A stretch of DNA of 60,138 bases, filler included, from Stramenopiles sp. TOSAG23-6 (Eukaryota): assembly GCA_900128565.1 (NCBI GenBank). It is 13 parts of 13 records of this genome, joined end to end, with 100 filler letters (N's around TTAATTAATTAA, not from the genome) between each part and the next. Parts side by side here need not be neighbours in the genome. Positions count along the whole stretch, not along the records: positions 1 to 4,543 come from LT637136.1; positions 4,644 to 9,186 come from LT637137.1; positions 9,287 to 13,829 come from LT637138.1; positions 13,930 to 18,472 come from LT637139.1; positions 18,573 to 23,111 come from LT637140.1; positions 23,212 to 27,748 come from LT637141.1; positions 27,849 to 32,384 come from LT637142.1; positions 32,485 to 37,017 come from LT637143.1; 5 more parts are not named here. One strand, written 5' to 3'. Positions 80 through 59,192 of the stretch are shown here, piece after piece. The notes beneath the pieces are model-generated. The model worked only from the letters and a program-made list of their open reading frames with translations, had not been told where the DNA came from and did not search any database. How positions within the stretch are numbered: the first letter of the stretch is position 1; every line of letters starts with the position of its first letter. A program made the position numbers and the translations under genes.

Positions 80-784
80 ATCAGACCCAATAATTACAAT
101 ATCATTATGTTGAACAGAGACACTGTTAGAATCTCCATCAAATGGTTTATCTGAACTTTGTGGGCCAAGTTGTAGTGGTCGGTTAAAAGACTGTATCATG
201 AAAAATATTTGAAATTTCGAAATGGGTCAAAAAAAAATCCTTAGGTACAAAATTTCGTACGAAAAAAAATATTGAAATTCGTGATGAAAACAAACATGCA
301 TACCAGGTGTTGTTTGAAAAATGATGTCGCTTTGATCTCGTATGACGATAGCTTGGCAATCACCAACCGAGATAAATTCAAGATTATTCTCAAGTAAACC
401 AGCAACAACTGCGGTAGCTGAACCTTCTACGCGTGACGGACCACAAGTTGCCGAAAGCCAACCAGACACTAATGCGTTCGATGGTGGTTGCAATTTGTCA
501 CTCGCATCTCGTTTTAGTTGAGCGTCGCGAGTTTTCTCCATCAAACTTTGCGAATAATTCCGCGGATCGATACCATACTTGGACCATCCACCAACACCAT
601 CAAAGACACCAATACCATATGGACTGTAGAAATGGGAATCTTCTCCGTCACCGTCACCTGGTTTTCCTTTCATTGGAATCACACAACTACCGCATTGTAA
701 ATGGAGGCTACGTAATAAGCATTTATTTCTTTGTTGAAGAAAGCATGTTTGTACCCGATTGGAGAATACTGCTGACATATTCAT
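80..784 (-). CDS. PP2C-family phosphatase, PTC7-like (3'-truncated at contig edge); exons 784-296, 190-80
   Basis: Motifs GEDSHF, GVFDGVGGW, GSATA, SVGDC. Removing intron 295-191 gives MH|SFNRPLQLG (H-x-FN-x-P-x-QL of PTC7). The next intron starts after ...IIGSD at 79. Confidence 0.85.
191..295 (-). other. Canonical GT-AG member of the same intron family (105 nt)
   Basis: CAT|GTTTGT...TTCGTACGAAATTTTGTACCTAAG...CATGATACAG|TCT restores H-S-F-N. Confidence 0.85.
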
Positions 785-1096
785 AGAAATGTATAATTGT
801 AAGTGGATGCTTGTGGGAAGGTTTCCTACAAATAAAATTCAGAAATGTATGTTTGTTCAATATTTTTGTACGTAAGTAAGTAGCTAAGTCTGTGTGACTG
901 TCTGTCATGATTTATGAATCTCTATTTTTTTTTTTTTTTTGATTTTACATTTTTTTTGATCATCGAAAAAATAAAAGATTTCGTGTTATTACGGTTACAA
1001 AAAAAATGAAAGAAAAAACAAAGATCTCGCGATCCTGTTATTTTTTTGTTTAACATTACTTTTCTATAACTTTAACTTTAATATCCTTGACAAGTA

Positions 1097-4000
1097 ATGT
1101 CGGTGACTTTATCTCTTCATGAGGATGCCACTCAAAATCGCTTACGAGAGCTTCTTTCTATTAGTGATAAATTACGTGAAGAAATCGCCGCTTGTATCGA
1201 CGATGAGGAGAAAGTGGCACTGTGTAGTAAATTGTTAGAAGTCGCTAATGAGCTACGTCAAATACGGAGTACAATGACTTCAAAGAATGATACAGTTGAT
1301 ATAAAAACCAATAAAACCAANAAAAACAAACTATTGCTACGAGTTTCACCAGAAGAAAAATTTCATCACCTTCGTAACGAATTCAGCAAAACAAAAATCG
1401 AAACAACCTCTCCAGTGGCTGTAGTACGACAACAAATCATTCAAGACAATCCTGAGTGGGATATTGATTCTTTGGAGCATAAACTTTCACTCAATACGGA
1501 TGAAGGTAAATTACTTTCTTTAATTTCGAAACAAAATATTACAAACGATACCACGTCTACTGCAAATAGTACAAATCCAGAAAATGAGACTACACGAAAT
1601 AATCAAAATATGCAAAATATACAAAAGTATAAAGAATCAGATGATGATGAGCATAAATATTTACGAGACAAAAACACAATTTTATCATTGGAATTACAAT
1701 CTCTCCAAAAACAACTCACACAAGAAAAACATAAATGTGCCAAAATCCAAACTGCTGTGGCAACAATTAAAGATGGTGCAAATACAAATGCGATTGCAAT
1801 GTATATTTTATTTTTTTTTTTTTTCCCGGTAAAAAAAAAATCGAATTTTTTTTTTTGGTTTTCGTACGAAATTTTGTACCTAACAATTTTTCAAGTTTTT
1901 TTTTGAAATATTTTTCCAAAATACATTCACACAGCAATTGAATCAGCAATGAAAAGAAACTCTGCAAACTTTACAAGAGAGTATGTATGTTGTACTATGA
2001 TTTGTTTTTGTACCAAATGATATTTGTTTTTTTTTTTTATAGATTTTTGTTTTACTTTTATGATTATAATTATGATTATAATTATGATTATTATTATTAT
2101 CAAACAAGATTTTTTTTAACTTTTTTAAAAATTTTAAATTTGTTTTTTTTAAATGTATTGTTTAGAAAATTTTGTACCTAACAACAAACATTGTTTTTTT
2201 TTATAATAATTTTCACAATACATGAAACTGTAATGGCTGAGAGTGAGAAAAACACTCAACATTTACAAAATGAAATAAATAACTTGGAAAATTCTCTACA
2301 AAATCAGAAAAATCAATTACATTCTGAAATTGAACAAGCTCAAGAAAATTTAAACGAATCCAAAAATATCTTTTCCGAGAAGGAGAGAGTCATGACTCGA
2401 TTGCATAATGCTGCATTAGCTAATGCTGAAAAACATATTTTAACTTTACGTGCCGTCGCGGCCGAAAAAGAAGAAAATTATCATGACGCCATGGTTAAAG
2501 CGAGGGAGGATTTAACCCAAGAGGAGCATCTTCATGGTGAAACTGCAGAGGTGCTTCGAAGTTATAAAAATGAAATGTTAAATGAACGTTCAAAACTCAT
2601 TGATGAATTCCATGTAATGAAAATGGAAATAAATGATGCAAATGAAAGAAAAGTTTCACATTTGGAGAGTGAAAATGGTGTTGCAGCAGCCGCTTTACAA
2701 CAACAAGTCAGAGATGAACACGAAATATATACATTAAAATTATTAGAATTACAGAAGCAATTACACTACGAAACACAAGAAGCATCTATTGCCCGGACTG
2801 CATTATCAACTGTTGCTGAGGCTTCAAAGAGAGATGCAATAGAAGTAAATAAACATATTAATAAAGAAAAACAGAACTTTCTTGTCGCAAAAGAAGGTAT
2901 ACTACGTGCACATAAATATCATCGTTCAAAGTATGATGAACAACTAGTAAACTTAAGAAACAAAATGGAGGAAATGAGAATCAAACATAAAGATGAAATT
3001 CAAGAGCTTCGTGATTTGAATAGATTAAAACTAAACGCTGTAGAAGAAGAGAAAAATATTTTGCTTGTCTTACACAATGTATGTTTTATTTATTTATTTT
3101 TTTTAAATTTGAAATTCGAATTTTTTTTTTTTTTTGGTAAAAAAATTTTGTACCAAACAAATTTTCAAAATTTTTTTTTTTTGAAATATTTTTCCAAAAT
3201 ACATGCTGCCATGACAAAGTGCGAACGTGATATTTTGGTGTATAAAACATCGGCTGATCAACATGAGAAAAACGTTGATAAATGTTTGAGTGAAGCTAGA
3301 ATTTCAGATACAAAACATGAGGAAAAATATTTGGCACTTCAGGAAAAGCACGAAAAAAAAGTAGTAGAAATGGAGGTTAAATATCAGGAAGAAAGACTGA
3401 ATATGTTCGTTTTATTTTTTTCAATTTTTTATCTATAATTTTTTTTATAGTAAATTTCGTACCTAACAAATTTGAGTTTTTTTTTTGAAATATTTTTCCA
3501 AAATACATCGAATCAAAACGCGCTGAAGAAATCGATAAATTGAAAATCGCACATGCAAATGCATTAAAGACAATTCACTCGACAGTAAGAGAATCTAGTG
3601 AATCCACAGATGACGAATCTGTTGCACTTCGATCATACGTTTGTTTTATTTTTTTTTTTAACAAAAAAATCGTTTTTTTTTTTCGTACGAAATTTTGTAC
3701 CTAACAAATTTTTTAAAATTTTTTTTGAAATATGTTTCCAAAATACATAAACTTCTTTATGTTCAACACGAAGAAAATCAAAAACAACACAAAAAAGCAA
3801 GGAACATTCAATCGACAATCATTAAAGGTTTAATTGAGCTTCTATCTAGTCCTGAGATCTCACATGGAGTATCATCTACATTTTCTATAAGCAATGATAC
3901 TAATGTCATGAATGAAACTAAACAAATTCTTGAAATTTTACAACATAGACATATCAAACGGTTAATCACGCGTCGATTGATTTGCATTCAACGTAAAGCA

Positions 4001-4543
4001 TTCAATAAGCTTGTTCGTTTTAATATCAACAGACCACTACTACAAAACGGTGTAGAATCATATCAAGCAAAACAAATACGATTACAAAAACAGCATCCAT
4101 CAATGGTATGGGATATTCAAATGAATAAACCTGAATCATATCAAGCAAAACAAATACGATTACAAAAACAGCATCCATCAATGGTATGGGATATTCAAAT
4201 GAATAAACCTGAATCATATCAAGCAAAACAAATACGATTACAAAAACAGCATCCATCAATGGTATGGGATATTCAAATGAATAAACCTGAATCATATCAA
4301 GCAAAACAAATACGATTACAAAAACAGCATCCATCAATGGTATGGGATATTCAAATGAATAAACCTGAATCATATCAAGCAAAACAAATACGATTACAAA
4401 AACAGCATCCATCAATGGTATGGGATATTCAAATGAATAAACCTGAATCATATCAAGCAAAACAAATACGATTACAAAAACAGCATCCATCAATGGTATG
4501 GGATATTCAAATGAATAAACCTGAATCATATCAAGCAAAACAA
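1097..4543 (+). CDS. Large coiled-coil protein of unknown function, 6 exons (1097-1800, 1927-1984, 2224-3078, 3205-3404, 3509-3638, 3749->4543), 3'-truncated
   Basis: Three track ORFs join into one open frame when five GT...ATACAT introns are removed; E/K/Q/L-rich heptad character. Confidence 0.75.
4055..4543 (+). repeat. Perfect 78-bp coding tandem repeat, 6 full copies plus a partial (ESYQAKQIRLQKQHPSMVWDIQMNKP)
   Basis: Unit starts at 4055, 4133, 4211, 4289, 4367, 4445, 4523 and runs into the contig end. Confidence 0.95.
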
Positions 4544-4643: not shown

Positions 4644-4697
4644 TTGTACCTAACAAATTTTTTAAGATTTTTTTTGAAATATTTTTCCAAAATACAT

Positions 4698-4886
4698 GGT
4701 GCTAAACATTTCAATACACCTAAACACAAAAAGTCACCATTTCAAAAAATCTTTCAAATCTTTCAAATCTCTAATGTTTTCCATTTAATCTGCTTTGGAT
4801 TTGGAATTGTGTTGATATTAGGGTTAGGGTTTTATCTACGATGTAGAAAATATCGAATTCAATTCAAGCGTAAACAGTCTCTGTAG
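4698..4886 (+). CDS. Last exon of a membrane protein (single C-terminal TM helix); duplicated at 9341-9529
   Basis: Follows an intron 3' end (...CCAAAATACAT at 4697); LICFGFGIVLILGLGFYL followed by a basic tail. Confidence 0.55.
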   Translation, partial: GAKHFNTPKHKKSPFQKIFQIFQISNVFHLICFGFGIVLILGLGFYLRCRKYRIQFKRKQSL

Positions 4887-5481
4887 TCTTCAGTATTGTT
4901 GTACGCATTGTGATATTCGTGATATTCCGTACCATTTTTTACATACGATGCTTCATTTAAAAAAATAATTTTATTTTTCTTCAAAATACAATTACTTTTG
5001 AAGTGTATATATCTTCTTTTTTTTTTAAATTTATTATGATTCACTTTGAATTGTGTCATCAGTTTTCCAAATATTTCTTTTCCATTTGCTTTATGGTCTT
5101 GAAGAAACCTGCAGGCGCCATCCAATGTGTGATGTGTGTAGCTAAGGCCGATTTCATCAGTGCAGCATAAGTCATATGACTTATGACGTTTTTTTTATGA
5201 TTTTATAGACTTATGTTTCTGTGCAGTTCATCAGCAATTGTCATAACCTAGGTGGACTCGAACCCTCGACCTTATGAATTATTAAAATTCAACTTTTGAC
5301 CACTCATTTTTGATATTTTATTTTAAACATCATTTTTGTTCTGTGGTGTGTACGCTTTGACCAAGTAGTAGTAGTCGTCGTCGTTGTCTTCCTTTTCAAT
5401 AATACCAAGTTGATTCCCTCTTATACAACTGCATCATATTATTGTTTGAATAGAGAAACACAGAATTATCATAGAGTCCTG

Positions 5482-6393
5482 ATGGCTGAAAATAATCATG
5501 GTGAAATTGATGCTGAGCCCTTGCCCTTGTCCTTGCCTAAAACAAAAAAAAGAAAACGAAGATCTAACTTTACGACTGATGAACTTCCACTTATTCTAAG
5601 GGCTGGGTATGCAGCAAGTCACAATAACAAGGGTTCAGATAATAAGACGTCGACACTTGAAGAATTGATTGAAGCCAATTTCAAGAAACTCAGACCTTCT
5701 TCAGTAAGAACTGGCGATGCACTTTGGACAAAGTTCAAAAATCTCAAAAGAGATTGCGGTAAGTACTATACTATTTACTGTACTTTAAAGAGAGCTAAGA
5801 AGTCAGGTTGGGAAGAGGAAACATACTATCACGAATCAATTAAAGCTATGAAGAAGAATTTCAGTACTACACCTGCCTTTTCTCAAGAAGTTTATGCTAT
5901 CTACAAAGAGATGCATGAAATGCACGAAACAGCAACTGTGAAAAAAGGCACCAGCGGAAGAAACAAAATTCGAGCAATTGACAAGGCAAAGAAAGGTGTA
6001 CAGCAAATTATTGATCTTACAAAAAAAGAAACAAAACACCAGCAAAAGGCCATGTTAGATGCCCAGAGAGATCGTTCAGCAGCAGTTCAGCAGATGTCCC
6101 AAGTTATGTTCATGAGGCAAATACGATCTTCACCACCGGGTAGTGAAAACAGTAAATTTCTGGAATTCATTGAGGGAAATCAAAGAAAACTTATGATGAT
6201 GCAGATGGAAGAGAGCCTGCTTAGACAGCAGGATAAGATTGATAAACTAAAGAAGAAAATAAACAATGGCAAAGAAAGTAAGGACAAAGAAAACAATGAA
6301 GAAAACAATGAAGAAAACAGCAATGAAGAAAGCAATGGCGACAAAGAAAAAGACGAAGAAAACAACGAAGAAGACGAACTTCTTGTCTCATAG
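5482..6393 (+). CDS. Harbinger Myb/SANT-like (trihelix/NAM-associated) DNA-binding accessory protein
   Basis: RRSNFTTDE...RTGDALWTKFKNLKRDC...KSGW motif pattern, basic NLS, located inside the TIRs opposite the transposase. Confidence 0.8.
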   Translation: MAENNHGEIDAEPLPLSLPKTKKRKRRSNFTTDELPLILRAGYAASHNNKGSDNKTSTLEELIEANFKKLRPSSVRTGDALWTKFKNLKRDCGKYYTIYCTLKRAKKSGWEEETYYHESIKAMKKNFSTTPAFSQEVYAIYKEMHEMHETATVKKGTSGRNKIRAIDKAKKGVQQIIDLTKKETKHQQKAMLDAQRDRSAAVQQMSQVMFMRQIRSSPPGSENSKFLEFIEGNQRKLMMMQMEESLLRQQDKIDKLKKKINNGKESKDKENNEENNEENSNEESNGDKEKDEENNEEDELLVS

Positions 6394-6580
6394 AAAAATA
6401 TCGTTAGGTACAAAATTTCGTATGAAAATGTTACATGTATACGTTACTTTTTTATCTTTCATATTCTACATTAATTTTATATCTTTCCTATTGCACATCT
6501 AGATAAAAAGAATAGCAATAAAAAGAATAAAAATGATAAAAGAAAATTATTTTGAAATTCAAATCATCTTTATAATAAAA

Positions 6581-8053
6581 TTAATATTGGGAAATTAATG
6601 CATCTCTAAGTTTGAAATGGGCACTCTTACTACAGATTGATGAGTATCTTTGCTGAATTAAATCTGCAATTGTTATTCCTTCAGCTTCAGCAAGTAGGTC
6701 TAGCACTGTATCGACGCATTTTCCTTCAAGAAAAGCTTTTAGATCAGGGTCTCTTTCTTCTTCTATTTCTGCATTGTAAAGGTCTCCTTCAAATTCTGAA
6801 CCGAAAAAAAGAACATCGCAATTGTTTGCAACTATCATATTATGCATCAAAAAACAAAATTTTATCATTGTTCTCAAGTCTTCAATGTTTTGGTAATAAG
6901 CTGCAGATCGCATGAATGCAAACCTCTTCTGAATTACCCCAAAAAGACGTTCAACATCTTTTCTGATTGCTTCATGGCATTTAACATATTTTTTTTGTGA
7001 TGTTGATATTGGGTTCATTGATATTGCATAACAGGCCCACTTTGGGTACACACCATCGCCTAATCTATATTGAATAGAAAATTCAGATTGCTCACCTGAC
7101 TTTGATTTAATAAAAAACTGTTTTTCACCGAATTCTCCTCGTAGAAATGCACCAAGCATCGGATCACGCTCCGCAACACGGTTGTCTGGTTCTGTCCCGA
7201 GCCCTGAAAGATTAAGATGTGCACACCACAAATTACTGTGGCTGACTGCACTGACTTTTACACCACAACCTTTGTCACCCTTGAACTGTGCCTGGAGTAT
7301 TTTAGGGCACGCATCCCATCTCACAACCATGCAGTCTTCAGACCCATGACAACCTGGAAATCCTGCTAACTCTTTTGATTTCAACTCTCTTTTCATCATA
7401 TCCAGATGCAAAGGGTGTTGTGAAAAAATCTGTGGTAGATACTTGTCTCCTAGATTTTTTACAGTAGCACGTGCTACTTGAAGAATCTTCTTCCCAATTG
7501 CTGATTTTCCAAATCCAACTGGACACTCTAATTGAATATCAGCTACTGCAGTCCGTACCTTTTTTAGTAAAGCTAGCAGTCCTAGATCAGCAGACATTCC
7601 AAATTTTCCAGTGGCATTGGGTTTAGCTGCGCAATCATCTTTAATATTGATGAGAACTTCTTCGTAAACTTCTTTTGGTACGCCAAAATGCTGATGGAAT
7701 TCAAGATCAGTGTAAAGTTGTGTGTTATTCTCAGTGGCGAAGAATTCTTTGAACCAATTAGTTGGTGTTCTTTTTCTTTTTTTCCCTCCTGGTTTGCTAC
7801 CACCTCGTCTGTCACGTTTAACTTCTGCTTCCCATTGTTGAAAGTTACATATATAATTTTGACTACTTGTATCTAATGCAAACTCATCATTATCTGTAGC
7901 TATTAGCATAGCAGCTAGTTCTTCTTCATCAGATGTGTCCATTGTATTACATAAGTTGAAAACTACGCAAGACTTGTCACACGATTGTACACGACGACGA
8001 AGTTCATTCGACTCGACACGTTTTGATGTTTGACCGATGATTCTATATAGCAT
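6581..8053 (-). CDS. PIF/Harbinger DDE transposase (likely ATG at 7942)
   Basis: GFPGCHGSEDCMVVRWDACP, YRLGDGVYPKW, HEAIRKDVERLFGVIQKRF, CFLMHNMIV: typical of Plant_tran/DDE_Tnp_4 transposases. Confidence 0.92.
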   Translation of the reverse strand: MLYRIIGQTSKRVESNELRRRVQSCDKSCVVFNLCNTMDTSDEEELAAMLIATDNDEFALDTSSQNYICNFQQWEAEVKRDRRGGSKPGGKKRKRTPTNWFKEFFATENNTQLYTDLEFHQHFGVPKEVYEEVLINIKDDCAAKPNATGKFGMSADLGLLALLKKVRTAVADIQLECPVGFGKSAIGKKILQVARATVKNLGDKYLPQIFSQHPLHLDMMKRELKSKELAGFPGCHGSEDCMVVRWDACPKILQAQFKGDKGCGVKVSAVSHSNLWCAHLNLSGLGTEPDNRVAERDPMLGAFLRGEFGEKQFFIKSKSGEQSEFSIQYRLGDGVYPKWACYAISMNPISTSQKKYVKCHEAIRKDVERLFGVIQKRFAFMRSAAYYQNIEDLRTMIKFCFLMHNMIVANNCDVLFFGSEFEGDLYNAEIEEERDPDLKAFLEGKCVDTVLDLLAEAEGITIADLIQQRYSSICSKSAHFKLRDALISQY

Positions 8054-8419
8054 TTCGTGTTTTATTGAAGTTATGACGCGAGATAAAGTTAATAAAAAAA
8101 AGACAATTTATCATAAAATGCAAAAAAAAACATAAAGTTATGACAAAAATTTATGATTATCATAACTTTTTTTACTGATGAATCCGGTAATCATAACTTT
8201 TTGTCATAAGTTACCCGGGAACCATACTTATGCTGTACCGATGAAACCGGCCTAATGGTATAAGTTATATAATAATATTATATGACGATGACGTCATTGG
8301 TTTTGATTGACTTCGTTTTTTTCAAATCTTTGACTGGCCGATCTGATCTGGCCGATGAGAAAGTTTCTCCATGTGTGGCAATAATAAACATAGTTTTGTA
8401 GCAACAAACGTTTCTAAAA

Positions 8420-9133
8420 ATGCGTTCTTTGGTTTCAGAAACTTTTGTCCATGTATTGGCAATATTAGCTGTTAGTACTGCTCAAGTGTCTGATATTTTC
8501 TCATCTGTTGATCAAGAGCTTGCTATGAATGTTGCAAGGCTTACACTTGCCAATTCATCTGACACGTGGGACCTTGCAAAGGCTTCTACTATTTTGCACC
8601 TCACAGATGGACAATCGAAAAGTGTAATTACATGCTCTATGGCAACAGATGCACTTCGTGTTGCGGAAAGTGCTTCGGATATCCATGCTGCTGTGGTAAT
8701 TGAACAGGTGGCAGGTGGGTGTGGTATCAAGTTGGAAGATTCCATGGTGAATACTTTAATCAAGGCCTCAGAGTCAAGTGTTCTTATGGATATTTACCAC
8801 GGAGTGAAAGCACTTCATCAAACGGGTAAGACAATAAATAGTAACACTGTAACAGAAAATGTAATTTCATTGATGGAAGAAGATGGGGCATTTCGAGAAG
8901 CGGCGGATAGTGATTACTCTTCGGAGCTTAACGCTGGTTATGCATATGAAATTCTTTCGATTACGTACCCAAAACTAGAATCCAAGTGGATATCGTCCAA
9001 GAAAGATAAAACGGAAACAACTCCAGAAGCTACGAAAATATTTAATCTATTGGAAAATATCGATACTGTAGTTGATGGCATTGGCACTATACTTGATGCT
9101 TCGGAAAAAGTCGATATGTCTCTCTCGATAAAT
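8420..9133 (+). CDS. RPN2: Probable ribophorin II (OST subunit) N-terminal exon; truncated at intron/contig end; duplicated at 13063-13776
   Basis: Signal peptide; DIYHGVKAL and EEDGAFR...SSELNAGYAYEIL resemble the RPN2 lumenal domain (recognised from memory, not searched). Confidence 0.6.
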
Positions 9134-9286
9134 GTATGTTTTATTTTTTTTCAATTTCGAATTTATTTTTCGTACGAAATTTTGTANNNNNNNNNNNNNN
9201 NNNNNNNNNNNNNNNNNNNNNNNNNNNNNNTTAATTAATTAANNNNNNNNNNNNNNNNNNNNNNNNNNNNNNNNNNNNNNNNNNNN

Positions 9287-12200
9287 TTGTACCTAACAAA
9301 TTTTTTAAGATTTTTTTTGAAATATTTTTCCAAAATACATGGTGCTAAACATTTCAATACACCTAAACACAAAAAGTCACCATTTCAAAAAATCTTTCAA
9401 ATCTTTCAAATCTCTAATGTTTTCCATTTAATCTGCTTTGGATTTGGAATTGTGTTGATATTAGGGTTAGGGTTTTATCTACGATGTAGAAAATATCGAA
9501 TTCAATTCAAGCGTAAACAGTCTCTGTAGTCTTCAGTATTGTTGTACGCATTGTGATATTCGTGATATTCCGTACCATTTTTTACATACGATGCTTCATT
9601 TAAAAAAATAATTTTATTTTTCTTCAAAATACAATTACTTTTGAAGTGTATATATCTTCTTTTTTTTTTAAATTTATTATGATTCACTTTGAATTGTGTC
9701 ATCAGTTTTCCAAATATTTCTTTTCCATTTGCTTTATGGTCTTGAAGAAACCTGCAGGCGCCATCCAATGTGTGATGTGTGTAGCTAAGGCCGATTTCAT
9801 CAGTGCAGCATAAGTCATATGACTTATGACGTTTTTTTTATGATTTTATAGACTTATGTTTCTGTGCAGTTCATCAGCAATTGTCATAACCTAGGTGGAC
9901 TCGAACCCTCGACCTTATGAATTATTAAAATTCAACTTTTGACCACTCATTTTTGATATTTTATTTTAAACATCATTTTTGTTCTGTGGTGTGTACGCTT
10001 TGACCAAGTAGTAGTAGTCGTCGTCGTTGTCTTCCTTTTCAATAATACCAAGTTGATTCCCTCTTATACAACTGCATCATATTATTGTTTGAATAGAGAA
10101 ACACAGAATTATCATAGAGTCCTGATGGCTGAAAATAATCATGGTGAAATTGATGCTGAGCCCTTGCCCTTGTCCTTGCCTAAAACAAAAAAAAGAAAAC
10201 GAAGATCTAACTTTACGACTGATGAACTTCCACTTATTCTAAGGGCTGGGTATGCAGCAAGTCACAATAACAAGGGTTCAGATAATAAGACGTCGACACT
10301 TGAAGAATTGATTGAAGCCAATTTCAAGAAACTCAGACCTTCTTCAGTAAGAACTGGCGATGCACTTTGGACAAAGTTCAAAAATCTCAAAAGAGATTGC
10401 GGTAAGTACTATACTATTTACTGTACTTTAAAGAGAGCTAAGAAGTCAGGTTGGGAAGAGGAAACATACTATCACGAATCAATTAAAGCTATGAAGAAGA
10501 ATTTCAGTACTACACCTGCCTTTTCTCAAGAAGTTTATGCTATCTACAAAGAGATGCATGAAATGCACGAAACAGCAACTGTGAAAAAAGGCACCAGCGG
10601 AAGAAACAAAATTCGAGCAATTGACAAGGCAAAGAAAGGTGTACAGCAAATTATTGATCTTACAAAAAAAGAAACAAAACACCAGCAAAAGGCCATGTTA
10701 GATGCCCAGAGAGATCGTTCAGCAGCAGTTCAGCAGATGTCCCAAGTTATGTTCATGAGGCAAATACGATCTTCACCACCGGGTAGTGAAAACAGTAAAT
10801 TTCTGGAATTCATTGAGGGAAATCAAAGAAAACTTATGATGATGCAGATGGAAGAGAGCCTGCTTAGACAGCAGGATAAGATTGATAAACTAAAGAAGAA
10901 AATAAACAATGGCAAAGAAAGTAAGGACAAAGAAAACAATGAAGAAAACAATGAAGAAAACAGCAATGAAGAAAGCAATGGCGACAAAGAAAAAGACGAA
11001 GAAAACAACGAAGAAGACGAACTTCTTGTCTCATAGAAAAATATCGTTAGGTACAAAATTTCGTATGAAAATGTTACATGTATACGTTACTTTTTTATCT
11101 TTCATATTCTACATTAATTTTATATCTTTCCTATTGCACATCTAGATAAAAAGAATAGCAATAAAAAGAATAAAAATGATAAAAGAAAATTATTTTGAAA
11201 TTCAAATCATCTTTATAATAAAATTAATATTGGGAAATTAATGCATCTCTAAGTTTGAAATGGGCACTCTTACTACAGATTGATGAGTATCTTTGCTGAA
11301 TTAAATCTGCAATTGTTATTCCTTCAGCTTCAGCAAGTAGGTCTAGCACTGTATCGACGCATTTTCCTTCAAGAAAAGCTTTTAGATCAGGGTCTCTTTC
11401 TTCTTCTATTTCTGCATTGTAAAGGTCTCCTTCAAATTCTGAACCGAAAAAAAGAACATCGCAATTGTTTGCAACTATCATATTATGCATCAAAAAACAA
11501 AATTTTATCATTGTTCTCAAGTCTTCAATGTTTTGGTAATAAGCTGCAGATCGCATGAATGCAAACCTCTTCTGAATTACCCCAAAAAGACGTTCAACAT
11601 CTTTTCTGATTGCTTCATGGCATTTAACATATTTTTTTTGTGATGTTGATATTGGGTTCATTGATATTGCATAACAGGCCCACTTTGGGTACACACCATC
11701 GCCTAATCTATATTGAATAGAAAATTCAGATTGCTCACCTGACTTTGATTTAATAAAAAACTGTTTTTCACCGAATTCTCCTCGTAGAAATGCACCAAGC
11801 ATCGGATCACGCTCCGCAACACGGTTGTCTGGTTCTGTCCCGAGCCCTGAAAGATTAAGATGTGCACACCACAAATTACTGTGGCTGACTGCACTGACTT
11901 TTACACCACAACCTTTGTCACCCTTGAACTGTGCCTGGAGTATTTTAGGGCACGCATCCCATCTCACAACCATGCAGTCTTCAGACCCATGACAACCTGG
12001 AAATCCTGCTAACTCTTTTGATTTCAACTCTCTTTTCATCATATCCAGATGCAAAGGGTGTTGTGAAAAAATCTGTGGTAGATACTTGTCTCCTAGATTT
12101 TTTACAGTAGCACGTGCTACTTGAAGAATCTTCTTCCCAATTGCTGATTTTCCAAATCCAACTGGACACTCTAATTGAATATCAGCTACTGCAGTCCGTA

Positions 12201-13829: not shown

Positions 13830-13929
13830 NNNNNNNNNNNNNNNNNNNNNNNNNNNNNNNNNNNNNNNNNNNNTTAATTAATTAANNNNNNNNNNNNNNN
13901 NNNNNNNNNNNNNNNNNNNNNNNNNNNNN

Positions 13930-39587: not shown

Positions 39588-39639
<52 letters not shown>

Positions 39640-39689
39640 ATGTCATTTTCCTGACGAAAAAGTTTTCCTTTATATTTTTATTATTTTTA

Positions 39690-41554: not shown

Positions 41555-41650
41555 ATGGCATCTACTAAAGAATCTAGCTCTCCAAATATTGATTTACGTA
41601 TTCGTCAATTATTTACAAAGTATGATAAAAACAATACAGGTACTTTAGAT
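41555..41650 (+). CDS. N-terminus of an EF-hand protein (truncated)
   Basis: MASTKESSSPNIDLRIRQLFTKYDKNNTGTLD. Confidence 0.55.
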
Positions 41651-46080: not shown

Positions 46081-46282
46081 AATCTTGGCCTTAATATGTA
46101 TGAAAATGCCATTTTACTTGCAAGGACGTTATATGCACATTCGTCCACTCAGCAGTCTTTACATTTACTTGCAACGTGTTTATTTCGTAATGGGAAAGCC
46201 AAACAGGCTCACAGTGCTCTTAAATGTGGTGTTGCTGGTGATAAAAAACTTTCAGCAGACAACCGGTACTTGTTAGCTCTTT
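46045..46282 (+). CDS. CDC27: APC/C subunit CDC27 (APC3) N-terminus, truncated
   Basis: IEHNLGLNMYENAILLARTLYA...LHLLATCLFRNGKAKQAHSAL...NRYLLA. Confidence 0.75.
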
Positions 46283-48372: not shown

Positions 48373-49449
48373 CTAAAAATGAATTTCACAAATAAAAACA
48401 GCACACCAAGCAACCATGACAAACGTGAACAGCGTCAATATTTGAAGTAAAATAAACAAACAAAAAGCTTTACATCCTGAAGCATCCACATCTTCTAATA
48501 TTGTATAGGGCCAAAATCCCGTAACAGCTTTATTCACATGTAATACTGACAAGTATACTATTGCATATACCGCAGTTGACATTAAAAGAGTCAAAGTTTT
48601 TGGCATTCGCTCAACTAAAGAGATTCGATCTTTCACCAATAAAATGTCAACAAAAGCTAAAATTAAAGGCGGCCGATGTACAACATCATCAAACCACTTG
48701 ACATCCCAACCACGTGGTAACCATAAGTTATAATTTTCAATATTCTCTTTCCTTGGAGCGACTAACTTGTAGAACTGAATAGTGACAAACGTGCCGAGCC
48801 CAGCTGTGAAAACCGCCGAAGCATAAGTAGATGAAACGAAATTAGATGTAACTTCATGGCTTAAAGGAATCCAACCTACTAAAGATAACTCAGCAATTGC
48901 CGAAAACACAGTGTGAACAAGCTGCAAAGTACCATTATTCCTTGTCAAATATATGAAAGGTCCAAAAAGTGTCATGCAAGTAAATGATGGGTCGGTGTCG
49001 AGGTGTCCAGGATAGCCAACATTTTGAACATAAAGTATGTAAAGACATGCACATAAAGATATTACACTCACAATTGCACGAAATTTACTTGGAGTTGGTA
49101 AGTTATATTCTTCTTGGTCCCAGTTTGCAAGTGTAGACGTGACTAAGAATACAATTGGAAAGTACAGAAAAGTGACACCTAAACCAACTTTTTTAGTCCA
49201 CGTGTGCATTTTTTTCTCTCTCTCATTTAACCCAACCCAACCAAAATATCGAGGACCACAACATATAGTACTCGTACTTGGTTTATAATCAGTATATTGT
49301 TGCTTTAAAACTTCCCTTGCCGATATGGTAGAACGACGACGAAGTTTTAATGGTGTCTCTGGCAGGCACCATTTCTCGTGCGATTGTCTACGGGCACGTT
49401 TACTTTTTTTTTGCGAATCAGAGCTTTCTCTACGACGCATACTTATCAA
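48373..49449 (-). CDS. Multi-pass membrane protein, FAR-17a/AIG1-like
   Basis: Several TM helices; FIYLT, VVHRPP and FWPYTIL resemble the family Thr/His motifs. Confidence 0.6.
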   Translation of the reverse strand: MISMRRRESSDSQKKSKRARRQSHEKWCLPETPLKLRRRSTISAREVLKQQYTDYKPSTSTICCGPRYFGWVGLNEREKKMHTWTKKVGLGVTFLYFPIVFLVTSTLANWDQEEYNLPTPSKFRAIVSVISLCACLYILYVQNVGYPGHLDTDPSFTCMTLFGPFIYLTRNNGTLQLVHTVFSAIAELSLVGWIPLSHEVTSNFVSSTYASAVFTAGLGTFVTIQFYKLVAPRKENIENYNLWLPRGWDVKWFDDVVHRPPLILAFVDILLVKDRISLVERMPKTLTLLMSTAVYAIVYLSVLHVNKAVTGFWPYTILEDVDASGCKAFCLFILLQILTLFTFVMVAWCAVFICEIHF

Positions 49450-50121
49450 ACTGTTATAATAGACCCTAAAATGGATAATCTATGGTACTAAACCGATTGA
49501 AATCCAAATAATCTAAATCGTAACCACTTCGATACAGAGAGTAGAGGATTCTTAGAAATCGCTATGCCTACTACGGTATAGACTCGTGTATACGTAACGT
49601 AGTAGTGATCAATACAAATCATGACGTATACAAATCATCGTATACAAAATTGCGCCAAAATTCCGCCAAAATTGCCCTCCCTAACCCTAACCCTACGTAT
49701 ACCCCAAGAGGTTTTTTTTTTGCATAGAATTAAAAAATTGCACAAAAAACTTTTTACATTATAAAATATTCTTCAACACTAAAACTTTTTAGATTAAAAA
49801 AATGACCAATAAGCCAATGTGACTAACTATTGATACACTGATACATTGTCCATCTGTACTACCACCAAAACCTTTTTATTAATTCGAAAGTGTATATAAT
49901 CTTACTTGCGCAACACGCAGATCGAAAAAAAGCAGAAAAAAAAGCAGAAAAAATTATAAGTTTTTTATTAGATAAGGTATTGAACATCTTTATGTAACTT
50001 TAATTTTTCAGATTTGTCATGTAAGAACTAAAAATGTAGATAAAATGTACAATTTTCTTGAAATCTAGAATTGATAAAAGTTATATCATACACAAAAGAC
50101 TCAGAGTGTCAATTTATGAAT

Positions 50122-51362: not shown

Positions 51363-52311
51363 TTGGAAATGTTGAGAGATGATGTTTATTCATTTAGAAA
51401 AAAACAGGCATTTTATTCTATGAATCCAAATAAGTTTCGTTGTTGTGAATTTCTTGTAAAATACCATGAAGAAAGAGGTGATAAAATTCTTGTTTTTTCA
51501 GATCGCGTGTGTATGTTTTATTTTTATCAATTTTTTGTCTAAATTTTCTTTTGGTACTAAATTTCGTACCTAACAAATTATACAAAAAAAAATATTTTTT
51601 CACAATACATTTACTCTGAAAAGATATGCTGAAAAAATGCGTAAATGCATAATTTATGGTGCAACGAGTCAAATGGAACGTTTGAGAGTGTTAGATAATT
51701 TTAGAAACAGTCCGTTAGTAAATACGCTTTTTATATCAAAAGTTGGTGATGTCGCAATAGATTTACCAGAAGCTACTGTGATTATACAAATTTCAAGTCA
51801 TTTTGGATCTCGGCGTCAAGAAGCACAAAGATTAGGTCGAATATTACGACCAAAACCTGGAATGACTGCGGGGTTTAATGCTTTTTTTTATACGCTTATT
51901 TCAATAGACACGCCTGAAATGTACTATAGTAATAAACGTCAGCAATATTTAGTTGAACAAGGTTATACATTTAAAGTTGTAGCTAATCTCTTAGAAACGA
52001 CTGGTTTTAAATCTACTTATATTCCTTCTGTAAAAGAGGAATTGGATGTTTTGGAGAGTGTCCTTAATGCTGCCGTTGATAGAGAAATGGACGAAGAAGA
52101 TGGCATTGTAAAGAATCTTAATAGTGATGCTCTTCCCGCAAGACGTGCTCGTAGAAGTATGGCCGCTTTATCCGGTGCGTCGGGAACTAGTTATATGGAA
52201 TATAATTCGGCTCATGGCGGGCCTCAAAAGAAAGCGAAACGGGTGAATAAACATAACCGATTAGCTAAATTGAAGAAACAATTTAAGGGTTCCACTCATA
52301 TGAGAGAATAA
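51363..52311 (+). CDS. ERCC3: TFIIH helicase XPB, C-terminal part; exons ~51363-51510, 51611-52311
   Basis: [37 protein letters not shown]...[15 protein letters not shown]...[15 protein letters not shown]. Confidence 0.93.
51511..51610 (+). other. Non-canonical GT-AT intron in XPB (100 nt)
   Basis: GTGT|GTATGT...TACCTAAC...CACAATACAT|TTACT restores DRV-F-TLKRYA; the first AG after the branch motif (51623) gives a frameshift and stop. Confidence 0.88.
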
Positions 52312-52440: not shown

Positions 52441-55400
52441 TCATCTTCTAGCAAGTAAACTTTTATCCGTAACTGAAGGATCGTGAGCTGTCCTTGCATA
52501 TTTTGTAACGGAATGAAATTGTGTAGAATTTTCATCGCGTCGCAGAGCGGATTGAGGCATTGCTAAAGGACCACTCACACCATGACCACTCATGAGACCT
52601 AAGAGAAGTTTATTTCCATTCACGCCAAATTCAATATCATCCCGCAACGCTTTGACACGAATTACACGATTACGGAAATTATTATGATTTCCTCTATTAT
52701 TACAGTGTAAACCACCTTTTATAGAAATAAGGGCTGTTCCTGAGAGCTGTGTGAGAAGTTCAAGAAATACAGAATGTGTTGGTAATGCCATTTGTAATTC
52801 ACGACAAAGTTGTTTAAATATTTGACTCAATGCGCCAAGTCTTATAGATGATGATGTTGATTTTTCACAACAACCAAAACAAGCGCATAATAGAACTTGA
52901 GCTTGTTTTGGCAAATTTTGTACTGCTGTTGCTACTGTACTAAAAAAAATATTTAAAAAAAATTGTTAGGTACAAAATTTCGTACGAAAAAAAAATATTA
53001 AAAAAAAAAAAAAAAACATACCTTGAGATCCAAAAGATTTTCTAAGTTCCTTTGACATATGTCCAAGACCAACTAAAGGTTTTATTTTGTTCTTTTGATT
53101 AGCCATTGAACTCTTCCGATTTGCTATATGTTTGTAATGCGCTGACTCAATAGCAGACCTACAAGCGTCTAATGCTTTGCGAGCATTTATTGTTAAAAAA
53201 AAATGTCGGATTCGAAATTTGTTAGGTATATTTCTACATTTGGATTTTCTATTAAAAAAAAAATTTAGATTCCAATTGGGTAGGTACGAAATTTCGTACT
53301 AAAAAAAAATTGGAATTTGAAAAGAAAAAACATACATCACCTGTGCTGGAGGCGACACGTCTAGCACACAACTCAATTGCTTTAGAGTCACAGATTAAAG
53401 CATTTGCCACGACCTGAGACTGGGATGTATCTAAATTTACCTTTTGACCATTAGAATTGTCCGTGGTTAGCATACTCAACCTTTCTTGTAGAATTGCAGT
53501 AAGCTGATTTGTATTATAAGGTGAAAATACGATAATTTGTGGTTCTCTATTAAGCCTTCGGAGCCGAGGTAAAAATCGTTCTGTTAAATCAACAGCATTT
53601 GCTATTCCAATCACAACAAGTGATGAATATCTTGTCTTTGGCCATTCAAATAATTCATATAAAGTTTCTTTGTTTGAAAGTTGAATTAAATAATCAACTT
53701 CATCTACAATTAATACTGTCATTTTCTGTTTCGAGGAGATTCGTTTTTTCGGTGCATTAAATCGTTTTTCTATTTCTGCTTTGCAACGTTTTTCGACATC
53801 TTCAGCACTTCCTGACATTTCTAAACCACCAGGGTGATTCGAATGATTAAATTTTTTTCGCCATATTGTTGAAAAAATACTTTTATTACGTGCGAGAGAC
53901 ATACCATTTAAATGTATGACGTCAAAGTTACGAGGTATTACACGATTAGACGCTGATTTGTCTCCTTTAGTCTGTCTTGCTTTACAGCTGGATTGCCAAG
54001 CACGAATTTCTTTGACTACATTGGAAACACACATCGATTTTCCAGTACCAGGTAAACCACAGATGTATAAACTATTTCCAACGCCACTTCCAATGCAACC
54101 TCCCAGAAAATTCCGTATTAAACTTAGCTCCTTTTGCCGACCAATCAATTTTATACCAGACTGTCCTGAAGATGTGTGAAATGCAGATAAATTAAATCCT
54201 GGTTTTACAATAGATTTCTTTACTGTTGACATTAAGGTCTCTGAAGACGCTACGGATGACTTTTGAATATTTTGAACGTTTTGAACTTTTCTATTTTTTT
54301 CAATTTCATTAGGATGTATTGCAATTGTATTTGAAATGTTTTTCAATGAATGATCATCAGAACTTTTTATAACAGGTCTATTTTGTACTTTATTTTGTAC
54401 TTGATTTGTTTTATTTTCGATAGTTTCATCAGTAGTTAAACAACCTTCTGCATCTAAATTCATAGCTATTCTAGAAGTAGATTCGAATGATTCACGAACT
54501 CGCTTCTTTTTATTAAAACGTGAATCTTCCTTTGGCTGGGTTCGTTTTATAACACGACTTCTTCTATTTGATATCGATGTATTTTTCTCTGTTTTATCGT
54601 TAGTTGAAACTTCTGGGTTTTCTGAGTTAGGGTTAGGAATAGTACTAAAAGTATAACATTCCATGCATACATCGTAATCACAGTTTTCGTCCTTACAGTA
54701 GTATCTTTGTTTGTTAAACTCCTTGTCACATACATCACAAAAATATACATAATTTTCGTCATGCATAAAATATAAGGGATGTTTATGTCTATTATTTTTC
54801 TTTGCACTACTGCGTGAACGACTCTTTGAAGAACTTAGTCCAGTTCTTGGTGTTTTTTGTATCTTTGAAGAACTTAGTCCACTTCTTGGTGTTTTTTGTA
54901 TTGGTGCTTTTTGTTTTTGTTTTGGGGATTGTTTTTTATGTTTTTTTCGTTTCGGAGATGACTCTTCTTTTCTAATTGAAGAAGATCGTTTTCGTTTTTT
55001 TGTAATCTTCTTCAAATTAGGGTTAGGATTTTCCTCTGTAATTGAAGAAGATCGTTTTCGTTTTCTTGTAATCTTCTTCACATTTGATTTAGTATTCTGC
55101 ATTGAGCTGATCTTTCCAGTAGGTGTTTTACTCACTGCGGAAATCACTGCGGAATCAAAACAATCCATACAAAGATCGAAATCATCACATTCTATACAAT
55201 GATTGCGTTGATCTTTGGCGTCGCTCTTACAATAATCACATTCGAATTCATAACCATCATTAAAAATATACTTGAGCGGATGAGGATGTATTGAAACGGT
55301 TTTCATACCACTTTGCTTTGTAGTAGATCCTTGTTGTCGTCTTCGTGGAGTCTTTTTCGAATTCATTGACACTCGCGTTATATCTTTCTTTGTTGAAGAT

Positions 55401-55524: not shown

Positions 55525-55679
55525 NNNNNNNNNNNNNNNNNNNNNNNNNNNNNNNNNNNNNNNNNNNNTTAATTAATTAANNNNNNNNNNNNNNNNNNNN
55601 NNNNNNNNNNNNNNNNNNNNNNNNGGTACAAAATTTCGTACGAAAAAAAATTCGAATTTGAAAAAAAAATAAAACATAC

Positions 55680-56577
55680 ATGCCGTATCAGGATGTGTAA
55701 GCCCTAGATTTTGTTCCGTGATTTTTAAAGCTTTAGTTAGAACAGGGACAGCTTTTTCATATTGAAGTTCACTTATATAGAGATTTCCTAATTTACGTAG
55801 AGTCAAAGAAATTCCATTGTGCTGCTTTCCTAGTATTTCTTCTTTCATATGCAAAGTTTTTTTTAAATTTAAAATACTGATTTCGCTCTCATTTTTTGGT
55901 ATCTCTGATGTCTCAATTTCTGTGACCAATGGAACTAAATCGACCGGATATCCATGACGCATCGATGGTTTACTCGAGTCATCTTCCCTTTCATCATCAC
56001 TTAATAAGATCATGTCCGCTTTAGTTTCTTTGAGTACCATATTTTTTAAAGCATCTGGATGTAGCGTACTATTTACAAACTTTTCTCTATTGAGTACAGC
56101 CTCAACGGCAGTTTCCGACATCATTGTATCTATTGATTTTTCCCATCGATTTAATACTCCAATGATATCACTTTGATTCATTTGTTTTGCGACTTCTATT
56201 GGTTTTTGTCCTTTGGAATTAGTTAAAGTTGGGTCGGCCGAATGGCTCAATAATAACCCCACCAGTACTTTTGTGCCCCAGCCTGCGGCAAAATGCAATG
56301 CTGAATTTCCACCCCAATCTACCCTATTTATCATATTGTCAGTAGTTGCTAAAGAAATTAATAAGTTTGACATTTCAGTGTGACCATATTTACATGCCCA
56401 ATGAAGACTCGTTCGTCCGTACTCATCGTCACAAAGACAATCGTCATATCCAGGACGCCGAAGAAGGACTTTCATTCTGTCTAGTTTTCCATGCCGTGCA
56501 GCATACCACTGCTTCCAAATGTTTGCGACTGTATCTGGCCCACCCTCGAGTTTATGAGGGCCAACATGGGTCGTCAT
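55680..56577 (-). CDS. Ankyrin-repeat plus TPR (kinesin-light-chain-like) protein, 3'-truncated
   Basis: GRTSLHWACKYGH, GNSALHFAAGWG; EEILGKQHNGISLTLRKLGNLY...LGLTHPDTA. Confidence 0.85.
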
Positions 56578-56845
56578 CTTCCAGCTTATTTTTCACAAAT
56601 TTGTGCTGAAATTCATAAGACTGCTATACTAACTTGTTTTCTTTTGAAACTGTAAAAACTGTCATATCGGATATATTTGGACGCATATAGGGTTAGGGTT
56701 AGTCGTGTTTGATATGCTCTTCCCACAACTATACTTTTATTATTATCAGACTAATCTTGAGATCATCAATCTCTATTGTTCACTGTAGTAACACAATTTA
56801 TCACCAAAGTTGCACTTTGTTTACAAAGCAGTAGAAGTGCAAAAT

Positions 56846-59192
56846 ATGTTTTGTAGATATTTTCATAGTATTGTACAAACTCGTCAGTTGCATCATGTTT
56901 TGCAAAGATGCGTCTTGAGACCAAAGGCAAGGACACAAATGTCAACTAGTGTAGAAAAGTCTATCCAGAACAACCCATCTCTACCTAGACTTCCACTACC
57001 AAACCTGGAAGACACCATGCATCGTTATTTAGAGAGCGTTTATCCTTATTGTATCAGTGATGGTGAATTTGAGGCACATCAGAGAGATGTTGAAAGTTTC
57101 ATTAATGGTATTGGATCAAAGTTGCAAGAAGAACTTGAACGGTGTGAAAAAAACTCTCAATGCTCTGGTAAATATCCTTATTCGTTTATTGAAAGACAAT
57201 GGGATGATATGTACTTATCTGGGCGTAATCCATTACTCATTAATGTGAATCCTGCTTTTATACTTCATCCTAATCCACAAAAAAATATCTCTACGTTGAA
57301 GAACCCTAACCCTAATGAAAACACGACACAAGTGAGCCAGGCGGCGAAGTTTATAAATTCATCACTTAAATGGCTTTTGAAAGTTCGCCTTGGACATTTA
57401 CCAGCTGATGGTCCATTGCCTGGTCAGTGCATGTCACAGTTTGAGACATTTCATGTACGTTTTCATCGTGAATTTAAATTATATTTTTTAGTACGAAAGT
57501 TTGTACCTAACGATTTTTTTACGAAAAAAAAAAAATATTTTTTCACAATATGTGGATCATCAAGAATTCCTGGTGCTACAAGAGACAAACAATTATTCAA
57601 TAAAAACGCAAAGCATATTGTAATCTTGCATCGTGGTCATATTTTTAAGTTAAATGTTTTTATTGAAAGTTGTGAAAAAATGAAAAAAAATGAAATTTTA
57701 TCTGTTGAAACTTTAATTAAAAATTTATCTTGTATAGTTGATTATTGTAACCAAATAAATGATGGTCCAGGAATTGGAATTTTGACTAGTTTAGATAGAG
57801 AAACTTGGTACAAAACCAGAAAATCTTTGATTGAATTTGACAATTTGAATGATTCTCATGTCACTGAGATCGATACAGCAATTCTTGTTGTTACATTAGA
57901 TGTATCAAACTGTATAAATAAAAATAGTTCAAATCATAGTCAAAATGATTTAATACGCGCCACAAGAAATGGTCTTCATGGATTACCAGGTAACTCACTC
58001 TCAGATCGATGGTACGACAAACCAACAATTATTATAGACAAAAACTCGCGCATCAGTGTTAATTTCGAGCATTCTTTTTCTGATGGTTCAATGTGGAATC
58101 GTTGGTTATTCGATACTCTGCAAGATTTTCCTAACCCAAATGAAGAGAAAACAAAAAATAATGAAACTAATATGAAATTAAATTCCAAATTAGAGCCTCA
58201 AACTCAAGAACTCAATTTTAATATCCCAGATTTTATTCAAACTACTATCAATGAATCAGTAAAAAAGGTCACTGATACTACGAATAATGTATGTTTTATT
58301 TTTTTATTTTTTTTTTTTCTATGATTTTTTTTTCGTACGAAATTTTGTACCTAACAAATTTAAGTTTTTTTTTTTGTGTTCAACCAGAAAATATTTACGA
58401 GGTAGAACAGAAACTGCGCGAGCACTCACTAAAAGTTCCATGAAAGCTGTTTTATGTATGGATCAATATGATCAAATGGACAGCGTAAAGAAAAAGAAAA
58501 AAAGAGCGATGAATGAGGGTACGTTTTCATTTCAATTTCGAATGTATTTGTTTTTTTTCGTACGAAATGTTGTACCTAACGAAAAACATTTTGAAATATT
58601 TTTTCTACAACAGGTGATACAGAATTAATGCCCCAAACATTAATTCGTGAAGCTTTGAGTGAGCATTCAAAGCTTACAAAGGCTGCGACGAATGGTTGTG
58701 GTATAGATAGACATTTATTAGCATTACAATTAGTATATGAAGAGTGGATCAAAACTGGCAACCTTAACCCTAACCCTGATTTTGATTTATTTCAATCAGA
58801 GTTATTTAAGATGAGTCAGTATTGGGGTATTAGTACAAGTAATGGAACTCCCAATTCAAAAATTATTCATGGAAATTGTTCTACAAATAGTAATAAACAA
58901 TGCAACTCACAAACACAACAATACTTACAAAGTTTTGTTTTCGGGCCTGTTGTATGTTTTCATCAAAAATTGTTTACGTTTTTTTTTCATACGAAATTTT
59001 GTACCTAACGAATTTTTTTTGAAATATTTCTTCACAATATATGTACCAGATGGATATGGCATTGGCTATCTTATATACGATGACGTTATATCTATCACAG
59101 TAACGCATTTTGAAAAAGATAATTTAAAGAGTAAAACATTATGTGAAATGATTGAAAAATCTCTTTTTGAAATTGTAGATCAATTACAATAA
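56846..59192 (+). CDS. Choline/carnitine O-acyltransferase (CPT2/CrAT-like); exons 56846-57454, 57554-58288, ~58377-58518, 58614-58951, 59043-59192
   Basis: SLPRLPLPNLEDT, DRWYDK, NFEHSFSDG, RGRTET, GIDRHL, FGPV|VPDGYGIGY; N-terminal mitochondrial-type presequence. Confidence 0.92.
58952..59042 (+). other. Non-canonical GT-AT intron in the carnitine acyltransferase (91 nt)
   Basis: GTT|GTATGT...CACAATATAT|GTA restores FGPVVPDGYGIGY; the next AG (59049) is out of frame. Confidence 0.9.

Follow-up and report, generated by a model that had tools for sequence, protein, structure and literature searches.

Few bases of eukaryotic genes are as invariant as the terminal G of major-type introns. Here we analysed a 60,138-nt stretch of DNA (referred to below as the window) from the genome assembly of Stramenopiles sp. 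TOSAG23-6 (GCA_900128565.1), in which most introns begin with GT and end with AT, and compared these GT-AT introns with transposon-derived and non-canonical introns of other eukaryotes. In the available portion of PMC11282704, introners are described as supplying one splice site themselves and taking the other from a target-site duplication. In a survey of introners, GT, GC, GA or AT at the 5′ end and AG or AC at the 3′ end are treated as familiar, and unverified odd families were dropped. The introners of Micromonas pusilla and other algae, MITE-like DNA transposons that give rise to introns, resemble the introns of the window in that, according to the accessible accounts, hundreds to thousands of near-identical short sense introns occupy the genome of an aquatic protist. 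However, they co-opt a canonical 3′ AG, whereas the dinucleotide that appears to be duplicated here is the non-canonical AT, with an apparent duplication of only 2 bp and a very short inverted repeat.

It has also been reported that most introns of Fritillaria borealis are AG-AC or AG-AT introns which arose from miniature inverted-repeat transposable elements with inverted repeats and target duplications (PMC11282704), and that this host has a modified major spliceosome with duplicated, divergent U2AF (PMC11282704, PMC13326754; both known here from the parts available). Its 3′ AC or AT end is aided by a preceding exonic repeat, as the AT with its border repeat may be here. However, the 5′ ends in Fritillaria are mostly AG and the host is an animal, whereas all 21 GT-AT introns of the window, a protist sequence, start with GT, most often within a textbook GTATGT donor; the two systems share no more than the 3′ AT and its association with a border repeat. 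In Physarum polycephalum, GT-AT borders and massive recent intron gain are likewise described in the accessible text, but GT-AT introns make up 17% of 1,014 non-canonical introns (0.8% of all) against 21 of the 33 introns listed here. In Physarum a GTATCYTT donor is combined with a TTTGA branch motif at a distance of 9-12 nt, whereas here GTATGT goes with CTAAC at about 42 nt from the 3′ end. The introns of Amoebophrya and of euglenids are, in the accessible text, similarly transposon-like, with short border repeats and non-canonical ends (PMC11282704). Their borders are variable, whereas those of the window are uniform, and the stable end-to-end helix that joins the ends of euglenid introns contrasts with the folds obtained here, which were not significantly stable.

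The GT...AT intron pattern of the window is real and far beyond chance. An earlier reading made from the sequence alone (the sequence-only reading) had listed 33 introns, and its coordinates held: all 21 intervals given as GT-AT read GT...AT and all eight given as GT-AG read GT...AG on the coding strand. It had overlooked that nearly all of the listed introns are copies of one very abundant repeated element. The explanation that we favour, with a probability of about two in three, is that these are transposon-derived spliceosomal introns, that is, introners formed by a non-autonomous element of about 90-240 nt whose duplicated AT acts as the 3′ splice site. The element, which ends in ...ATAC and contains both a donor (GTATGT or GTACGT) and, about 42 nt before its end, a branch-type CTAAC motif, would insert at an AT and duplicate it, giving exon...AT/GTATGT......ATAC-AT/exon (slashes mark the borders). 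A cut at the GT of the element and past the second AT would remove the element together with one copy of the duplication, so that the frame would be exactly restored and the insertion would be silent. Splicing at the duplicated AT would oblige the spliceosome to tolerate U at the last intron position.

Homology and reading frame, together with the sequence itself, support the view that exactly GT...AT would have to leave the message, in essential genes and on unrelated contigs. While the repeat family, its copy number, its sense orientation in genes, the length to be removed and the enrichment of AT are shown directly, we infer that this removal is RNA splicing by a U2-type spliceosome in which the final intron base may be U and occasionally another base. 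The sequence-only reading had gone as far as a major spliceosome accepting AU 3′ sites, probably throughout the genome. The exact removal of GT...AT and the genome-wide pattern are supported, while the mode of removal and the type of spliceosome are put forward here at the lower strength just given.

The copies share a consensus of about 100 nt (GTATGTTTTATTTT...TCGAATTT...TTTTCGTACGAAATTTTGTACCTAACAA...TTTTGAAATATTTTTCCAAAATACAT), and a second subfamily starts with GTACGTTTTCATCA... and ends with ...TTTCACAATACAT or ...CACTATACAG. With a duplicated piece of the window counted once (54,499 unique bases), the 12-base core TTTGTACCTAAC occurred exactly 26 times against 0.013 expected from composition, and 39 times (0.72 per kb) with one mismatch. 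Over positions 37118-41650, an independent seawater metagenome (run X1) had a DNA depth of about 4 in exons but of up to 50,133 in the intron core, and the RNA depth in the intron-core bin of three metatranscriptome runs was 8,425-16,548; these depths are sums over all aligned contigs and give the order of magnitude of the excess over exons (10^3-10^4), not a copy number. Pre-mRNA, intron retention or DNA carry-over may account for the high depth of the repeat in the RNA libraries, and this depth is neutral on splicing. The gene-borne copies were all in sense orientation, including those in the essential genes XPB and CDC6. Of the properties by which introners are recognised, many near-identical intron copies in one genome and sense orientation with frame-restoring removal were found. 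The GT-AT pattern is taken as genome-wide because of the copy number of the element, and the conservation of donors and branch motif is in part due to descent, since the introns are copies of one element.

The exact interval removed was examined by a homology scan, in which all donor/acceptor pairs around the borders were enumerated, those with open frames were kept, and the BLOSUM62 scores against homologues were summed. For the XPB intron (51511-51610, plus strand), removal of 100 nt gives ...SDRV/FTLKRY...; the GT-AT solution scored 1914 and the best GT/GC-AG solution 1767 (margin 147, six homologues), and top scores came only from 100-nt removals. For the CDC6 intron (53185-53335, minus strand), the scores were 1554 and 1412 (margin 142, six homologues), and the resulting junction ...STGD/ARKALDAC... 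can be compared with ...SGDvRKALDVC... in the solved human CDC6 and ...AGDARKALDAC... in a metagenomic relative. For the intron at 58952-59042 (plus strand), whose removal gives FGPV/VPDGYG, they were 603 and 522 (margin 81, four homologues); this intron had been assigned to XPB but sits in a carnitine acyltransferase gene. The statement that the conserved motifs of XPB, CDC6 and carnitine acyltransferase are restored by the AT acceptor was upheld, as GT-AT outscored every GT/GC-AG alternative in all three genes, whereas for the 2-oxoglutarate oxygenase (2OG) motif that had been named beside them Pfam gave no match in the exons concerned. In the same carnitine acyltransferase gene, the best GT-donor solution for a 99-nt intron of the element family (57455-57553, plus strand) ends in GT, with 533 against 452 for GT-AG. 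In a structure comparison, the upstream CDC6 exon matched CDC6 and ORC1, and the 54-aa downstream exon gave a chance match at most against solved structures; since the latter was uninformative, the boundaries were assessed by the scripted scans.

Because the introns had originally been picked by continuity of frame, a frame-blind set was built, which required CCAAAATACAT as 3′ motif (at most one mismatch) and GTATGTTTTAT as the closest 5′ motif (no more than two mismatches). All 10 informative copies showed agreement between the best upstream and downstream frames, which had been chosen independently (P = 1.7e-5 for a chance rate of one third); because one of them extends across an artificial spacer (9134-9340), the agreement is counted as 9/9. 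At the DNA level, contigs of an independent metagenome covered the 3′ end at 40192 with 0 differences and that at 38662 with one difference, for which the N of the window at 38682, included in the piece, is the likely cause. Contigs from the RNA libraries covered the repeat and parts of exons (37332-37645, 38041-38193 and 38895-39119, for example).

The donors of the 21 GT-AT introns, all of which begin with GT, are of the U2 type (GT or GC start, GTRNGT-like): 12 read GTATGT, three GTACGT and six another GTNNNT. Their 3′ hexamers are ATACAT (13), ATATAT (4), ATCCAT (2), ATTCAT (1) and ATAAAT (1). The 3′ AG expected of U2-type introns is lacking in these 21 of the 33 listed introns and in 57455-57553. 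The branch motif described in the sequence-only reading was recovered, a CTAAC-type motif being present upstream of the 3′ end in 28 of 30 introns examined (median distance 42 nt; 31-55 nt in 26 introns and 7-8 nt in two). Its observation that AT acceptors line up with AG acceptors also agrees with alignment A1 (14 element copies plus flanks), where CAT shares columns with the CAG of two AG-ending copies. An AG lies between CTAAC and the 3′ end in six of the 21 introns, four times at 10-12 nt past the motif, once at 17 nt and once at 32 nt (39929, an ambiguous case), and a rule of the first AG after the branch would mostly fall in the exon and break the frame. Two further family copies, near the cores at 20810 and 29903, have apparent GT and GG ends as judged by eye; together with the GT-ending sibling at 57455-57553, they suggest that the last two intron bases are read just loosely.

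The exon ends in AT ahead of 15 of the 21 GT-AT introns, against 10% expected (P = 3.9e-11), and the 3′ AT of these introns suggests a 2-bp target-site duplication. An AG-ending copy in CDC6 (52935-53021, minus strand) carries AG at both places, in the exon before it and at its 3′ end, which is what copying of the target into the last two bases would produce. In 14 of the 21 cases the downstream exon starts with G, which may point to a longer target preference.

The same exonic AT invites a reading with the borders two bases further left, as AT-AC introns (ATGTAT...ATAC), a pair accepted by spliceosomes; first-position A with last-position C is a known compatible combination. Such a register leaves an identical mRNA for 15 of the 21 introns, and in XPB the shifted register, there GT-AC, is silent and ties with GT-AT at 1914. 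However, it would force GT-AC, TT-AT, AC-AC or GA-AC borders on the other six introns, would cut 2 nt ahead of a perfect GTATGT donor, and would turn FGPVVPDGYG of carnitine acyltransferase into FGPDV..., with D for a conserved V, while the AG-ending siblings are cut at the column of AT and not at that of AC. GT-AT is the sole register fitting all 21 introns, two of which (3639 and 40192) permit no shift. It is preferred because of this fit, the perfect donor, the aligned cut of the AG siblings and the retained V, and AT-AC borders are considered distinctly unlikely. If GT...AT is what leaves the message, the work might still be done by a minor (U12-type) spliceosome transformed in the manner known from Physarum, with flexible 3′ bases and a 3′ site set by its distance from the branch. 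GT-AT is a known non-canonical U12-type class, to which the 17% of the 1,014 Physarum introns (in the accessible text) belong; the donor GTATGTTTT fits the U12 consensus GTATCCTTT at 7/9 positions and the Physarum variant GTATCTTTT at 8/9; the last two bases vary (AT, AG, GT) as in U12-type introns; about 10 nt before the 3′ end there is a T-rich stretch, TTCC/TTCAC; and the stramenopile Blastocystis is described, in the portion of the source available, as having hundreds of minor introns, mostly AT-AC. The positions +5 and +6, which form the core of U11/U6atac pairing, are nevertheless GT here instead of CC or CT, so that the donors read GTATGTTTT or GTACGTTTT and not [G/A]TATCCTT, and GTATGT is a perfect U2-type donor. 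In place of TTCCTTRAC near the 3′ end there is only the loose TTCC/TTCAC, and the sole strongly conserved branch-like motif, CCTAAC, lies 31-55 nt away in 26 of 28 introns, which is far for the U12 type. Phase 0 is not avoided either (11 of the 21 introns). Excision by a minor spliceosome is thus regarded as unlikely.

It could also be that the gene models are wrong, with nearby GT-AG sites being used at the cost of small protein indels, or with many genes disrupted by the transposon and not expressed as proposed. The claim that the nearest AGs give frameshifts was only partly correct: AG options lose in the three testable genes, but in-frame GT/GC-AG alternatives exist within 60 nt at 20 of the 21 introns, which counts against the removal of exactly GT...AT. 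Examples are an in-frame AG 6 nt upstream in 39929-40058 and a shift of +4 with the same length in 40397-40524, and most host genes are without homologues by which a junction could be tested. Against wrong models stands the uniformity of GT...AT, compared with AG alternatives that vary between introns and that in the three testable genes score 81-147 points lower and delete invariant motifs such as RKALD, FxLK and PDGYG. The motif-defined copies were frame-compatible in 9/9 cases, and every gene-borne copy, in XPB and CDC6 as elsewhere, is sense-oriented. Outside these three genes, the uniformity of the borders is the only argument against AG alternatives; on the whole, wrong models appear very improbable. 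Finally, the inserts might be removed from DNA, like internal eliminated sequences of ciliates bounded by a short direct repeat. An AT...AT direct repeat does bound 15 of the 21 inserts, and the TA-bounded eliminated sequences of Paramecium likewise leave one repeat copy after removal. However, the independent metagenome contigs retain intron ends, and among the joints listed for that metagenome over 37118-41650 none has the intron-less joined form. The donor and branch motifs, the strict sense orientation and the position and sequence shared with GT-AG siblings also speak for introns, the genetic code of the reading frames is standard and ciliates are not the nearest relatives; DNA removal is considered extremely improbable.

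Several observations weigh against introners with a duplicated AT as the 3′ site. The exonic AT is missing at six of the 21 introns, namely those starting at 3639, 38662, 39929, 40192, 51511 and 58952, and its presence at the other 15 means that GT-AT, TG-CA and AT-AC borders all yield the same mRNA there. Protein conservation is sufficient to reject AG alternatives for only three introns, and two deposited gene models read into introns of the element family. No exon-exon junction was bridged by RNA contigs of the three metatranscriptome runs over 37118-41650. The inverted repeat at the ends of the element is only about 4-8 nt long (GTAT(G)TTTT against AAAATAC), and pairing of the ends (GUAU/AUAC) was seen in 4/8 minimum-energy folds with non-significant z-scores of -2.45 to +0.37; an end-to-end RNA helix like that of euglenids was rejected, as the folds are no more stable than shuffles. 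The notion that AT-ending copies are young and AG-ending ones old was also discarded, since core divergence does not differ between them (Mann-Whitney P = 0.44, 21 against 8 introns). The 22-base core had no match in metagenome, genome or viral contig collections and a search at the protein level with a carnitine acyltransferase exon revealed no relative, so that a second genome with or without an insertion was not found in those collection searches.

A further-reaching proposal is that the major spliceosome of this lineage ignores the 3′ AG altogether, the site being fixed by the distance from the branch site and by the context of the intron end, and that most introns are recent transposon insertions with GT-AT borders. 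We hold this only tentatively and consider it somewhat doubtful. Introns could then end in T or G, preceded by A or G, and the relaxed reading of 3′ ends would have let an AT-duplicating element reach a density of about one copy in every 1.5-2 kb of gene space. Were this so, a spliceosome and a transposon would be co-evolving in a free-living protist.

As for the introner reading with its duplicated AT, if true it would be the clearest case yet of a transposon target-site duplication dictating a non-canonical splice site. A free-living protist with about two thirds of its introns ending in T behind a textbook GT donor would allow site choice in the second catalytic step to be studied as a natural experiment, and, if confirmed in RNA, its splicing machinery would do without the normally obligatory final G. 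The GT-AT claim is directly testable with existing metatranscriptomes. In the literature, with supplements outside the search, no paper combining 'GT-AT' and 'introner' and no account of predominant GT-AT introns were found; in the portions available, single-cell genome papers on marine protists leave unusual splice sites unmentioned and the genome paper on cultured MAST-3 has 0 occurrences of 'introns'. GT-AT introners with a duplicated AT as 3′ site are a plausible variant of the transposon-derived non-canonical introns known from Micromonas introners and Fritillaria.

Apart from the three introns placed by the homology scan, the GT-AT set comprises the following. Five introns belong to subfamily A: 1801-1926 and 3079-3204 on the plus strand, both behind an exon ending in AT, and 28101-28221, 28904-29023 and 46823-46922 on the minus strand. 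Subfamily A also includes 3405-3508 (plus), the sole intron without an in-frame GT/GC-AG alternative within 60 nt; 3639-3748 (plus), whose upstream exon ends in AC, so that the GT-AT border alone fits; 29330-29524 (minus), with an internally duplicated core; 32020-32131 (minus), where a TAG 10 nt past CTAAC is skipped; and 40397-40524 (minus), with the GT-AG alternative at +4 mentioned above. Subfamily B, with a GTACGTTTTCAT... start, is represented by 19037-19129 (plus). On the plus strand there are in addition 1985-2223, behind an exon ending in AT, 19870-19977, with a TACTAAC motif, and 33470-33576, with a GTAAGT donor and an internal ACAG 23 nt ahead of its end. The minus-strand introns 38662-38757 and 40192-40327 are those whose 3′ ends were found in independent metagenome contigs; the exon ahead of the latter ends in GA, and GT-AT alone fits. 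The remaining two, both on the minus strand, are 39929-40058, listed as GT-AT but ambiguous owing to its in-frame AG, and 40661-40760.

The GT-AG introns of the element family are 191-295 (minus), 14206-14309 (plus), the CDC6 intron 52935-53021 with its matching exonic AG, and 58519-58613 (plus) in the carnitine acyltransferase gene. The GT-AG intron 20106-20217 (plus) belongs to subfamily B, 31604-31744 (minus) has the core, and 29610-29717 (minus) and 33125-33223 (plus) are without it. Intron 33125-33223 contains three consecutive copies of the 3′-end motif (TTTTCATGATACAT, TTTTCACCAT and TTTTCACCTTACAG), so that an AT-type end precedes the frame-required AG by 32 nt. Two partial element copies on the plus strand lie at contig ends, a 3′ part ending ...CCAAAATACAT at the start of one contig (4644-4697) and a 5′ part (GTATGTTTTAT...) at its end (9134-9186).

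The window consists of 13 pieces of about 4.5 kb each, joined by N-TTAATTAATTAA-N spacers, and thus covers several separate loci; its G+C content is 25-37%. The second and third pieces (4644-9186 and 9287-13829) are base-for-base identical. Several pieces begin or end within the intron repeat, as 4644-9186 does at both ends, because assemblers stop at high-copy repeats. The best relatives of the XPB fragment reach just 48-62% identity, and among them oomycetes and other stramenopiles stand out at 55-57%; sequence words of the window are also present in seawater and marine metagenomes and in small runs of a coded 'organism A'; and two deposited coding sequences with the source label 'GSMAST32.ASY1.ANO1...' match window genes at 94% and 75% identity. 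On the strength of this label and weak homology, the host is treated as an uncultured marine stramenopile. Rfam and tRNA scans gave no match, and no snRNA gene was found within the window.

The deposited models of both genes examined misread the element introns. The carnitine acyltransferase coding sequence P0122 (window 56792-58321) enters intron 57455-57553, omits conserved residues and stops within the next intron, and the CDC6 coding sequence P0146 (53255-55522) runs at its end into intron 53185-53335, so that the C-terminal domain is lost. The current annotation of the assembly is unreliable wherever element introns occur. Genomes of this kind defeat standard annotation, which is likely to have distorted both the gene catalogues and the functional inferences made for these abundant marine grazers.

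Other genes of the window include a 1075-aa superfamily-1 helicase frame (42274-45498; AAA_11, AAA_12) and an Arf-family GTPase (45541-46113), both apparently without element introns. Further family matches were FKBP (16640-17683), an ankyrin/TPR protein (55627-56592), Far-17a/AIG1 (48376-49479) and fatty acid hydroxylase (35855-36574), and a partial, weak PP2C match under the Pfam cut-off lies at 230-838. A 285-aa coiled-coil exon had 0 matches in a representative library. Tandem repeats of about 60 nt ('...atcatatcaagcaaaacaaatacgattacaaaaacagcatccatcaatggtatgggatattcaaatgaat...') occupy 4080-4543 in the coding region of a coiled-coil gene.

A complete DNA transposon of the PIF/Harbinger type was found at 5143-8255, with its duplicate at 9786-12898. 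It encodes a 508-aa frame (6584-8107, minus strand) matching Plant_tran (E = 1e-36) and DDE_Tnp_4 and a second frame of 359 aa (5314-6390), and has 28-nt inverted repeats, 89% complementary, which start with GGCCGATTT at 5146 and end at 8252; TAA borders the element on both sides (5143-5145 and 8253-8255). Its transposase was rejected as the autonomous partner of the intron element on the same contig, as the GGCCGATTT... inverted repeats and the TAA duplication are unlike the intron ends. Between the two convergent frames of this Harbinger element, a degenerate intron core lies at 6394-6480 (minus strand).

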